Origin: a virus
Length of the DNA: 10,067 bases
UHGV virus genome: UHGV-1547097
Reading direction: 5' to 3' (one strand)
Shown here: piece after piece, positions 2,473 through 5,225 of the stretch
Position numbering within the stretch: the stretch's first letter is position 1
Layout: the number at the start of each line of letters is the position of its first letter
Position numbers and translations under genes: made by a program
The notes under the pieces: model-generated
What the model saw: only the letters and a program-made list of their open reading frames with translations
What the model was told of the DNA's origin: nothing
Databases searched by the model: none

Positions 2473-2795
2473 ACTTTCAGGCCCCTCTCATGTAACCAGT
2501 GGGCTGCACGCAGCCTGGCGTTTTCCTCACCGGCAAGCAGTGAGCGGATAATCCCGGCCGCCTCGCTGTCGTCGTCCTTCACCGCGGTATGAAGAGTGAT
2601 ACCCCGGGCCACGCCACGCTTTATCGTGATGACGCCTTTTTTCTCCAGTGCGCGAAGATGCTCCACCGCTGCATTCACTGAACGGTATCCCAGCATGGTT
2701 GCCACCTCCTGATTGGTTGGCGGAAAGCCACGCTCTTTCTGGTAAGAAATCAGCATATCCAGCACCTGCTGCTGGCATTGAGTTAACGTCGTCAT
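2469..2795 (-). CDS. LexA-like N-terminal DNA-binding domain protein with no S24 peptidase domain
   Basis: 108 aa. Residues 1-70 (MTTLTQCQQQVLDMLISYQKERGFPPTNQEVATMLGYRSVNAAVEHLRALEKKGVITIKRGVARGITL) align with the LexA winged-helix DBD (LTxRQQEVxDxIxxxxxxxGxPPTxxEIAxxLGFRSPNAAEEHLKALxRKGVIEI...RGI). The C-terminal 38 aa are unrelated to the protease domain. ATGA overlaps with both neighbours. Confidence 0.75.
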   Translation of the reverse strand: MTTLTQCQQQVLDMLISYQKERGFPPTNQEVATMLGYRSVNAAVEHLRALEKKGVITIKRGVARGITLHTAVKDDDSEAAGIIRSLLAGEENARLRAAHWLHERGLKV

Positions 2796-3445
2796 GCCGC
2801 CATCTCCCTGACCAATTTTTCTGCCTGCTGGCGAACCTGCGCCAGAAAGGCCTCACCACATGCCTCAAGTTCATCGCGCCCGATGTAGCTGATTGCCGCT
2901 CCCTTCCAGGTCTTATCGAAAACAGCAATAGCACCAGCGAAGAACGCTCCTGTCGGCACCTGCTTCTCATCCTTCGGGATAAACCAGACAGGCAGTTCAA
3001 AACCAATACGCCCGCGAATAAAAGCAATATGGTCCGCATCTTCCGGCCACCACACTTCGCTGGTGGCAGCTTTGATCAGGAAAACATAGCGCCCGCCCTT
3101 ATCACGCATGGAACTGGCATGTTTCATGATGTAACGCATGCCGGTGATGTATTGCCCCTCATGCTGACTGGCGCGGCTGTACGGGGGATTGCCAAAGGCA
3201 GCACCTTTAAGCTCCGCAAGACGTTCTGACCAGTCATGCGCCAGCGCATTGTCTTCCGCCGTGTAATACGCGGCACATTTGGCGTTATCACCGTCAGTAA
3301 ACAGATCCAGAACAAACGGGCCAAACAGGGTGTTAATTCCCCAGAAAATGTTGTCCGGCGTGCGCCACTGATCGCCCACTTCCTTCAGTTCATGGGCTGG
3401 TTTGTTCCGCAGTTCCACCAGCGCCTGGCAATATTTATTACTCAT
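2792..3445 (-). CDS. Phage N6-adenine DNA methyltransferase (Dam-like, small phage Dam family)
   Basis: ATG at 3445 overlaps upstream stop (TAATG); GGGGG 4 nt upstream. Contains the catalytic NPPY motif (FGNPPYS) and a WRTP motif. The ORF track extends to a GTG at 3478, which I consider less likely. Confidence 0.8.
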   Translation of the reverse strand: MSNKYCQALVELRNKPAHELKEVGDQWRTPDNIFWGINTLFGPFVLDLFTDGDNAKCAAYYTAEDNALAHDWSERLAELKGAAFGNPPYSRASQHEGQYITGMRYIMKHASSMRDKGGRYVFLIKAATSEVWWPEDADHIAFIRGRIGFELPVWFIPKDEKQVPTGAFFAGAIAVFDKTWKGAAISYIGRDELEACGEAFLAQVRQQAEKLVREMAA

Positions 3446-3933
3446 TAAGCCCCCACGTAATTCCCTGACAGATACCACTCTTCACCCGATGCAGCGCGCT
3501 TGCTGCTTTTCCGTAAGCACCGCTCACGACGCGTCAGAAAATTGTTTCGTTCTGGCTGGGAGTGGCTTTCACGGAATGCCGCCATCCACACGGTTGCAGC
3601 ACGACGGTATAAGCCCCTTGACTCCAGTTCTTCAGCCTGGCGGGTCAGGCACAAAATCACCCGGGGATCGTTAGTGCCGACATAGAAATTGCGCACAGGT
3701 CTGGTTTCTCGAACTGGTTGTGGTTCCGGCCCCTGCGCTCTCTCAGTCAGGCGCGGGAAATGTCTGCGTGTATCTCCTTCACAACGGTGAGCCACACGCC
3801 CACTCTGACGTAACTTGCTTGCTGACTGCAGAACGCGCTGCCGTGAGTAACCAGCAAAAGCATCCGCAATGTCTCCGGAAGTGCACCCCGGATGGGCTTC
3901 AATGAATTTCTGAACGTCATTTAACAGACTCAT
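3445..3933 (-). CDS. YfdN-like phage protein of unknown function, in the position usually held by a helicase loader
   Basis: ATG at 3933 with GGGGGTG Shine-Dalgarno upstream (the track starts at GTG 3939). Start overlaps the initiator stop; stop overlaps the Dam start. No Walker A motif visible. Resemblance to E. coli K-12 CPS-53 YfdN is from memory. Confidence 0.55.
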   Translation of the reverse strand: MSLLNDVQKFIEAHPGCTSGDIADAFAGYSRQRVLQSASKLRQSGRVAHRCEGDTRRHFPRLTERAQGPEPQPVRETRPVRNFYVGTNDPRVILCLTRQAEELESRGLYRRAATVWMAAFRESHSQPERNNFLTRRERCLRKSSKRAASGEEWYLSGNYVGA

Positions 3934-3935
3934 GA

Positions 3936-4877
3936 TCACCCCCTAAATCCTGCCGGGATCTGGCTGTAGTCCACGTTGTCGTAACTGGCTTTGAAGTACG
4001 GGTCTTCACGTTTTTGTGTGTGCGTGCTGACGGACGGCGATAAGCGCAGGGAAAGCTCATCCCATTTTTCCCGCAACTTCGACGGGCTGAGCACGTTACG
4101 GCACCAGAACGGATCGCGGCTGACGCGGCTGTACATCTCGCAGATTTGTTTGTGAGTACGACCATCCTGCACACACATCAGGCGAATTTCGTTTGCCCAG
4201 GCTGTCCAGTTAGGTTCTTTGGGACGAACCACCTCGCCGTCACATTCGGCGGCCTGCTCGTACAGGGCGATGATTTTTTTCCAAAGCCACTGTGCGCAGG
4301 TCAAATCATCCTGCGTCCCCCACTGGCACTTTTTAGGGCTGAATACAACCGCATCAGGATGGCGAGTTAAAAAATCCTGTTCATCCGTCTGCGTGTCCGG
4401 TTGCGAAGCGTCCGGACGAGAAGGTTTTTTATCTGACGGATCATGTTTTGATTTTACTGACGGATCCCCGCCAGATTCTGACGGGTGAAAACCCGCTTTT
4501 TTGCCAGATTTCGACGCATCAAATTTTGACGGGTCAGATTTTGATGCATCAGATTTTGACGGGTCAGAATCTGACAGTTGAGAAAATGCCGCTGCCTGAA
4601 GCTTCGCAACGTTAAGCTGATAAACATTCGACGCATTGCGGTTACCCTGGCGACGCGCCTTACGCGTTAACCAGCCTTCTGCTTCCAGCCGTGCGATAGC
4701 CGTTCTGACGGTACTCATCCCCGCGCCAATCTGGCGGGCAATGGTTTCAATCGATGGCCAGCACACACCTTCGTCATTACTGAAATCAGCCAGGCGGGCC
4801 ATAATTGCCACGCTGGATAATTTCATGCCTGACGCTGCGCAACCATCCCATACATAGCCGGTTAATTTAGTGCTCAT
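3936..4877 (-). CDS. Phage replication initiation protein (O-like): N-terminal winged-helix HTH, acidic Ser/Asp repeat linker, C-terminal domain
   Basis: 313 aa, ATG at 4877 with GAGG 6 nt upstream. N-terminal segment SSVAIMARLADFSNDEGVCWPSIETIARQIGAGMSTVRTAIARLEAEGWL is typical of replication-initiator HTH domains. The central linker SDSDPSKSDASKSDPSKFDASKS is encoded by the iteron array. Confidence 0.8.
   Translation of the reverse strand: MSTKLTGYVWDGCAASGMKLSSVAIMARLADFSNDEGVCWPSIETIARQIGAGMSTVRTAIARLEAEGWLTRKARRQGNRNASNVYQLNVAKLQAAAFSQLSDSDPSKSDASKSDPSKFDASKSGKKAGFHPSESGGDPSVKSKHDPSDKKPSRPDASQPDTQTDEQDFLTRHPDAVVFSPKKCQWGTQDDLTCAQWLWKKIIALYEQAAECDGEVVRPKEPNWTAWANEIRLMCVQDGRTHKQICEMYSRVSRDPFWCRNVLSPSKLREKWDELSLRLSPSVSTHTQKREDPYFKASYDNVDYSQIPAGFRG
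4446..4577. repeat. Iteron array (candidate replication origin) inside the initiator gene
   Basis: Tandem ~15-bp units on the + strand: AGATTCTGACGGGTGA (4473-4488), AGATTTCGACGCATCA (4506-4521), AATTTTGACGGGTCAG (4522-4537), ATTTTGATGCATCAG (4538-4552), ATTTTGACGGGTCAG (4553-4567), plus degenerate copies at 4446-4466 and 4568-4577. Each unit has a palindromic core (TGACGGGTCA or TGATGCATCA). Confidence 0.75.
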
Positions 4878-4886
4878 GACCGACCT

Positions 4887-5225
4887 CTATTTCCCTGAAT
4901 TTACGACAAAACTGTTCGAGCGGACTGAAGCACTCATGCTCATAGCCTTCGCGGAGGTAGATAACCCGTTGTGTTTCCGGTTCCCAACGAATGACTCTGA
5001 CGGGCACTCCGTAGTGATCTTTGAACCAGCGGTTAACTTGTCGCAAAGGACTGTCTCCTTCTGCCGGTTGAAATCACCCACAGCCCACTCAGCAAAGCTG
5101 TGGGTTACAATTTCCCTGTCACCTGGTACATTCACTGCATAGCAATATTCCACCTTCGCTTTTCCACCCGGTACAGGAAGCGCAATCAGTTGCGAGCGAC
5201 GGTAGTGTGTTGTTAAACTGTTCAT
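4887..5225 (-). CDS. Hypothetical early-operon protein (112 aa)
   Basis: ATG at 5225 overlaps upstream stop (ATGA), GGAGA 9 nt upstream; stop TAG lies 9 nt before the initiator ATG, giving a tight operon fit. No family recognised; the C-terminal third is Ser-rich. Confidence 0.5.

Follow-up and report, generated by a model that had tools for sequence, protein, structure and literature searches.

The 10,067-nt stretch of the virus genome UHGV-1547097 analysed here (the window) carries on its minus strand a gene for an O-like replication initiator, P0001. Inside this gene a 15-bp unit with the coding-strand consensus TCTGAYNNRTCARAA occurs eight times in direct orientation, forming an array that we consider here as a candidate replication origin. 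Over its full length P0001 matched phrog_391, 'replication initiation O-like', with an E value of 3e-135. Its N-terminal part contains a winged helix (aa 23-90), for which HTH_36 (PF13730) was the best Pfam match (aa 23-70, E = 4e-11), accompanied by lesser matches to GntR, MarR, DnaD_N and RP-C. In the same Pfam search Phage_rep_O (PF04492) did not match P0001 at E <= 0.01, Rep_3 gave no match, and RP-C reached only E = 0.0047, below its cut-off. The C-terminal domain is related to that of gp15 of phage phi80, with 35% identity between aa 167-278 of P0001 and aa 174-275 of gp15 (E = 2e-25). The array occupies nt 294-447 of the 942-nt gene (31-48%), between the end of the N-terminal domain (N-domain) at about aa 98 and the start of the C-terminal domain (C-domain) at about aa 167, and encodes the linker between the two (Table 1). 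These domain limits were evident from the Pfam matches, from homology and from the junctions of the mosaic genes.

Table 1. The initiator gene and the features inside it (positions in the window; unit sequences on the coding strand)
Feature	Position	Strand	Basis
O-like replication initiator gene, 313 aa (P0001)	3936-4877	minus	open reading frame list and translation; phrog_391
N-terminal winged-helix DNA-binding domain, aa 1-98, coding part	4584-4877	minus	Pfam HTH_36
Five head-to-tail 15-bp units: TCTCAACTGTCAGAT (weak), TCTGACCCGTCAAAA, TCTGATGCATCAAAA, TCTGACCCGTCAAAA, TTTGATGCGTCGAAA; encode (S)DxSK pentapeptides	4509-4583		Tandem Repeats Finder, repeat finder, weight-matrix hits
Spaced unit B1, TTTCACCCGTCAGAA, followed by TCTGG	4476-4490		weight-matrix score 20.4
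Spaced unit B2, GGGGATCCGTCAGTA, GATC at 4463-4466	4455-4469		codon fixation
Spaced unit B3, CATGATCCGTCAGAT, GATC at 4439-4442	4431-4445		weight-matrix score 10.9
Least stable 40 bp of the gene, candidate unwinding element, interleaved with B2 and B3	4419-4458		nearest-neighbour stability
C-terminal domain, aa ~167-313, exchangeable module, coding part	3936-4379	minus	phi80 gp15 homology

A weight matrix for the unit, trained on the sequences of relatives, found seven units in the gene: the tandem ones at gene nt 294, 309, 324, 339 and 354, the first of them weak, and the spaced units B1 and B3. B2, the eighth, scored just under the threshold. From start to start the units are spaced by 15, 15, 15, 15, 33, 21 and 24 bp, the last value being the distance between B2 and B3. 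Tandem Repeats Finder (TRF) reported a single array at 4505-4568, either with a period of 15 (4.3 copies, score 79) or, for the same array, with a period of 30 (2.1 copies, 91% matches, score 107), and no second comparable tandem array in the 10-kb window. The motif TGAYNNNTCA occurs 13 times in the window, with 3.1 expected, a count that was reached in none of 200 shuffles, and CCGTCA occurs 15 times (4.5 expected), with five copies falling within 4434-4562. Thus, the ~15-bp repeats that a preliminary description of this DNA had placed at 4425-4580 inside the initiator open reading frame are real. The cores it had quoted lie where it put them, with TGACGGGTCA at 4527-4536 and 4557-4566 and TGATGCATCA at 4542-4551, and further cores of this type are the degenerate CGACGCATCA at 4512-4521 and TGACGGATCA at 4434-4443. 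Two details needed correction: it had counted five to seven tandem units, of which only four or five are strictly tandem while the other three are spaced, and the degenerate copies that it called upstream (4425-4500) are present but lie downstream in the sense of the gene.

The coding-strand unit, TCT GAY NNR TCA AAA, encodes the peptide S-D-x-S-K. Because its period equals five codons, a pure linker repeat, selected only as protein, had to be excluded. We therefore collected relatives of the N-domain from phage records plus one genome per species (80 loci) and compared them in alignments of eight sequences (A1) and more widely (A3). In a comparison of five relatives, with N-domain identities of 81-89%, 10 of the 13 degenerate codons for invariant amino acids in the block B1-B3 were identical in all five, versus 5 of 61 in the adjacent N-domain (Fisher p = 1e-6). 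Across 72 relatives from many Enterobacterales, with Escherichia, Providencia and Rahnella among the genera, the mean frequency of the commonest codon was 0.89 in the block versus 0.53 in the N-domain (Mann-Whitney p = 8e-6), and GTA and TCA, though rare codons, were 100% fixed in the block. In B2, the codons GAT, GTA and TCA are all fixed at 100% in these relatives, and columns G412-A425 of this region are invariant in the eight-sequence alignment. B1 shows at least 90% conservation at nearly all bases (72-77 relatives), and GATCCRTCAG at B3 is conserved in most relatives. In sum, synonymous sites are nearly fixed in the repeat block and near saturation in the adjacent N-domain (72-75 relatives).

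The motif is also independent of the reading frame and of the peptide. In phiP27 (L004, ~1913-1962), there are two copies of the motif TTTGACCCTTCAGAWTCTGG, which are read in different frames, one as FDPSDSG and the other as LTLQNLD, and the B1 motif TTTGACCCTTCAGAATCTGG is likewise found in another frame. The corresponding unit TTTCACCCGTCAGAA lies out of frame in another relative (L081, gene nt 440), where it encodes VFTRQNL. In a relative with 66% identity (L093) the peptide becomes (V/I)DPS(T/N), and the DNA core TGACCCNTCAA is kept. Most units, 462 of 466, are nevertheless in frame; since 15 bp make five codons, the gain or loss of a unit leaves the frame intact, and so the copy number ranges from 2 to 10 among the relatives. 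Examples are an additional 15 bp in E. coli p10A and a difference of four versus six units between two otherwise near-identical phages. In three distant relatives (L082, L083, L090) other units are amplified, encoding for example HPPESGG or, with a 24-bp period, DPQVNSKH. In Rouxiella badensis (L057, gene nt ~405-420), one G has been lost from the run of Gs immediately preceding the GATC of B2 (TCTGG-GGGGGATCC), leaving a frameshifted initiator, and this G-run may be prone to slippage.

The anatomy of the unit was derived from 466 units in 75 genes. Most of the information is carried by T.TGA and TCA.AA and little by the centre, where positions 6-9 are the least conserved. The first serine codon is TCT in 93% and the second TCA in 93% of the units. 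The dyad core is T-TGA-N4-TCA-A, in which the pairs 1:14, 3:12, 4:11 and 5:10 are complementary in 370-408 of 459 units (~80-89%). The central pair 6:9 is weakly complementary (242 units versus 204 expected among the 459; odds ratio 3.1, p = 0.009). A compensatory change between TGAC..GTCA and TGAT..ATCA at two synonymous sites was considered and rejected, as the 6:9 pairing is weak and the commonest unit, TCTGACGCATCAAAA, breaks it. The conserved feature is thus the 14-bp dyad T-TGA-N4-TCA-A, which is a plausible site for a winged-helix dimer. Synonymous-site fixation, unit anatomy, and independence of frame and peptide together make it close to certain, as far as comparative sequence data can tell, that the repeat DNA itself is under purifying selection beyond its coding need.

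This anatomy also bears on the alternation of TGACGGGTCA and TGATGCATCA, which had been read as two half-site specificities. That idea is not supported, as the two cores differ within the least conserved positions and relatives have other centres (CCG, GCA, ACG, ACA, GCG, GGG and CCC) in differing orders; in phage 733R5, for example, the order is ACA/ACG/ACG/GCG/GCG/CCC. A duplicated 30-bp block would produce the alternation in the window. The register TGAY-NN-RTCA, in which the cores had been described, is favoured over GTCA-N5-TGAC, because B2 and B3 have the left half-site and lack a right-hand partner downstream.

We next consider how the array behaves when the gene recombines. All 75 genes with this N-domain carry this type of unit, and they are joined to at least five unrelated types of C-domain; the junction of the exchange lies always just after B3. 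Citrobacter phage phiNP, for example, has the N-domain and the whole array in common with the window gene (83% DNA identity) and an unrelated C-domain, Phg_2220_C. The reciprocal case is mEp460_4F5 (L003), in which only the C-terminal half is common to the window gene, and both the N-domain and the array differ. Its array (3031-3203), at the same linker-coding position, is made up of a 23-bp unit, GGTCA-N3-TGACC, in five copies and, after these, a 12-bp AT-rich repeat (TTACAGAGAATA-like) in three. With its 23-bp period this array is not a peptide repeat, and it is very probably the origin of that initiator. The N-domains of the mEp460 type and of the window gene are 39% identical over aa 25-90, and the common GTCA/TGAC half-sites in differing geometry fit this distant homology. 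Taken together, the N-domain and the array are inherited as one unit, and the C-domain is freely exchanged. Hybrids among phages lambda, phi80 and 82 behave in the same manner: specificity lies in one unit composed of the origin and the N-terminal part of O, and the C-terminal part can be exchanged.

The genomic setting is that of a lambdoid replication region. Over positions 3900-4900 the window shares 98% identity with two Shigella phages, SfII and SfIV, and with several phages of E. coli; in SfII, SfIV, PhiR29 and Kati the gene is annotated as 'DNA replication protein O' or 'primosomal protein'. The gene order in SfII is cI, cro, cII-like (YmfL), a small open reading frame, the initiator, a PerC-domain gene, a methyltransferase, LexA-like, RusA and Q, so that the initiator, following the cI-cro-cII-like genes, occupies the lambdoid replication slot. 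By homology and gene order, the window is the early region of a lambdoid prophage of the SfII/SfIV/e14/CPS-53 type. In the 41.5-kb SfII genome, the array is the sole tandem repeat with a TRF score of at least 40, and GAYCCGTCAR occurs six times (0.28 expected), four of them inside the array.

In lambda and the Stx phages, the central part of gene O contains the origin, made up of iterons and an AT-rich tract (PMC7466680). The candidate described here resembles the lambda origin and its Stx variants with six iterons in that repeats with dyad symmetry lie mid-gene, in the linker between the initiator domains, with a stretch on the downstream side that is AT-rich, here only modestly so. The lambda site is transcribed from the early rightward operon (PMC7466680), as the site in the window would be. 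Also as in lambda, a DNA-binding N-domain would be coupled to a C-domain recruiting the helicase machinery, roles that we infer for P0001. The differences are that the N-domain is HTH_36 instead of Phage_rep_O; that the unit and period are 15 bp, whereas lambda has iterons of ~19 bp with wider spacing; and that the eight units form two groups, with a weaker AT-rich part interleaved with units and no P gene after the initiator. The phi80 record (JX871397) lists four gp15-binding sites in gene 15, at nt 364-440 of 909 (40-48%), followed by an AT-rich stretch, a layout matching that of the window gene in the relative position of the repeats and in the homologous C-domain. Unlike in the window, each phi80 site is a 16-bp palindrome, TTCCCGAAAACGGGAA, repeated every 21 bp, the gp15 N-domain is Phage_rep_O (PF04492, E = 6e-25), and a P-like gene, 14, whose product works with gp15, lies directly downstream. 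The O-like initiators of mEp460 and the Stx2c phages ('primosomal protein I') are alike in C-domain, gene neighbourhood, place of the array and GTCA/TGAC half-sites, and differ in the 23-bp units and 12-bp AT-rich repeats already mentioned, which are out of codon phase. Iteron plasmids (pSC101, R6K, F, P1) likewise combine a winged-helix initiator with direct-repeat sites of variable copy number beside an AT-rich region, but their iterons, ~17-22 bp long, mostly lie between genes and bind Rep monomers, as opposed to the intragenic 15-bp units here. The layout as such is textbook for lambdoid phages; this member is set apart by the different DNA-binding domain, the in-frame 15-bp unit and the two-part arrangement.

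The candidate unwinding element lies on the gene-downstream side of the iterons, as expected for a lambda-type origin. The stability of this stretch is -47.0 kcal/mol, three standard deviations (sd) below the mean of the gene (-57.1, sd 3.3), and the GC content of 4420-4459 is 32.5%. By eye, the best matches to a DnaA box (5/9) or an IHF site in the conserved block were poor. On the plus strand at 4482-4495, antisense to the initiator, the region between the tandem units and B1 contains a terminator-like hairpin, CGGGTGAAAACCCG, with a run of Ts; because its stem is not conserved in relatives, it is probably incidental.

Considering these lines together, we think it likely that the array is the initiator-binding part of a lambda-type replication origin located inside the initiator gene of a prophage of the SfII/SfIV/e14/CPS-53 type. 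The suggestion of lambda-like origin iterons between two initiator domains, made in the preliminary description, thereby gains comparative support from the O-like gene, the DNA constraint, the module behaviour and the array in the paralogous initiator type of mEp460. In the mechanism that we propose, dimers of the N-terminal winged helix would bind each dyad unit, and the tandem units would load many initiator molecules. The duplex might then open at the most conserved, spaced units B1-B3 with the AT-rich stretch interleaved with them. The phi80-gp15-like C-domain would recruit the helicase, directly or via a host loader, a role that we propose because no P-like gene follows. As in lambda, transcription from the early rightward promoter would pass through the site.

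Several observations weigh against an origin at this place. No P-, DnaC- or DnaB-like helicase-loader gene was found after the initiator; in the next gene (3445-3939, minus strand) the matches were to a PerC domain (E = 6e-9) and, weakly, to the ANR family, and to nothing else. The AT-rich stretch is modest, with 67% AT over 40 bp, ranking only within the least stable 3.4% of the 10-kb window, where lower stability is found in the intergenic regions. With a period of 15 bp, compared with 20-24 bp in lambda, phi80 and mEp460, adjacent sites face almost opposite sides of the helix. The in-frame SDxSK period could mean that the conservation of the tandem units is partly at the protein level or reflects recent duplication. 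Our literature searches found no published description of this origin and no published test of initiator binding or of replication from the fragment. Finally, the coding-strand RNA of 4425-4590 is predicted to fold with -52 kcal/mol, versus -33.4 (sd 3.9) in shuffles (z = -4.7). Downstream of related N-domains, a DnaC-like ATPase gene is present in phiP27 and in the 16-kb element L093.

The strong fold raises an RNA or single-stranded-DNA structure in the initiator transcript, such as an element for translational pausing or coupling between the domains, for which the fixed rare codons of the block would also speak. We regard this as very unlikely: the single-strand fold follows automatically from repeated palindromic units, no Rfam family matched in the window, and with each change in copy number the predicted long-range pairings involve other partners. 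The sequences are also too conserved to show covariation, and the out-of-frame copy and the 23-bp array of the related family have no obvious rationale at the RNA level. A slippage-prone, low-complexity SDxSK linker having no role as DNA, with the origin elsewhere, would account for a period of exactly five codons, for the nearly complete in-frame occurrence of the units and for the range of copy numbers, which is typical of a tolerant linker. It would leave unexplained the near-fixation of synonymous positions next to a saturated domain and the persistence of the TCT-then-TCA order and of the rare GTA and TCA codons across genera. Nor does it predict a motif in other frames in phiP27 and L081, a DNA core retained in L093 despite changed flanking residues, an analogous array in mEp460 with a period that is not a peptide repeat, or an SfII genome without another repeat array to serve as origin. 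A linker of this kind is thus quite improbable.

Alternatively, the repeats might be bound by the initiator itself, or by some other protein of the phage or the host, for regulation and not for initiation, for example in autoregulation, as an intragenic transcription roadblock, in copy-number control, or in Dam/SeqA control via the two GATC sites. The dyad units do resemble operators, the two GATC sites stand 24 bp apart in the most conserved part, the GAT codon of B2 is completely fixed, and a gene for a phage N6-adenine methyltransferase lies two genes downstream. In iteron plasmids, moreover, initiation and control act through one set of sites. On the other hand, GATC is not enriched in the window (41 versus 38 expected), the GATC of B3 is lost in several relatives, which have GAACCA instead, and no promoter-like site was found within 4200-5000. 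The tandem-repeat scan of the SfII genome revealed no other origin candidate, and both position and layout fit the characterised lambdoid origins. We therefore consider a purely regulatory role unlikely and retain the origin as the preferred interpretation of the array.

If the array is such an origin, its recognition would define a cis element for replication studies on phages of the SfII/SfV/e14 type. It would constitute a second, independent case of the lambda plan, in which the origin is embedded in the gene for the initiator, here one with another DNA-binding domain, and a clean case of dual coding, in which a protein linker and a DNA array inferred to bind protein share the same bases. 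The general picture of lambdoid replication would be unchanged. A bolder extension, unlikely at present, is either that the origin and the linker form one coupled, tunable element or that the GATC pair and the methyltransferase let the phage escape SeqA-type sequestration. If the first were true, each 15-bp iteron gained or lost would add or remove five linker residues, and the strength of the origin would change together with the reach between the DNA-binding and the helicase-recruiting domains.

The methyltransferase in question is encoded at 2792-3478 (minus strand) and belongs by its match to TIGR01712 (E = 4e-76) to the phage N6-adenine methyltransferases. In phiNP, LLS, 733R5, YeP2 and mEp460, too, a methylase gene is present beside or near the initiator. 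A link between methylation and origin firing via the GATC pair of B2 and B3 is only a guess.

The module is widespread. With positions 4400-4877 (N-domain and array) as the query, we found matches in 2,006 of 5,426 complete E. coli genomes, 1,577 of which cover at least 80% of the query, and the module is also present in prophages of many Enterobacterales. RefSeq gives its protein no name beyond 'helix-turn-helix domain-containing protein' and annotates no origin. One strain among the matches has 15 bp extra. K-12 strains match only 4400-4644, from which it follows that the CPS-53 remnant keeps the array and part of the N-domain and not the rest.

We also looked for plasmids using this initiator as their replicon, for which the small circular elements in PLSDB were not decisive. 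One of these, L092 (OR902851.1, 15,193 bp), is a circular e14 element with mcrA, an invertase and an icd fragment. The other, L093 (NZ_CP148542.1, 15,977 bp), is a circular segment of lambdoid prophage DNA that extends from the immunity region as far as the lysis genes, and may be a by-product resembling lambda-dv or an assembly artefact. Its initiator is frameshifted, and the 15-bp array is still present.

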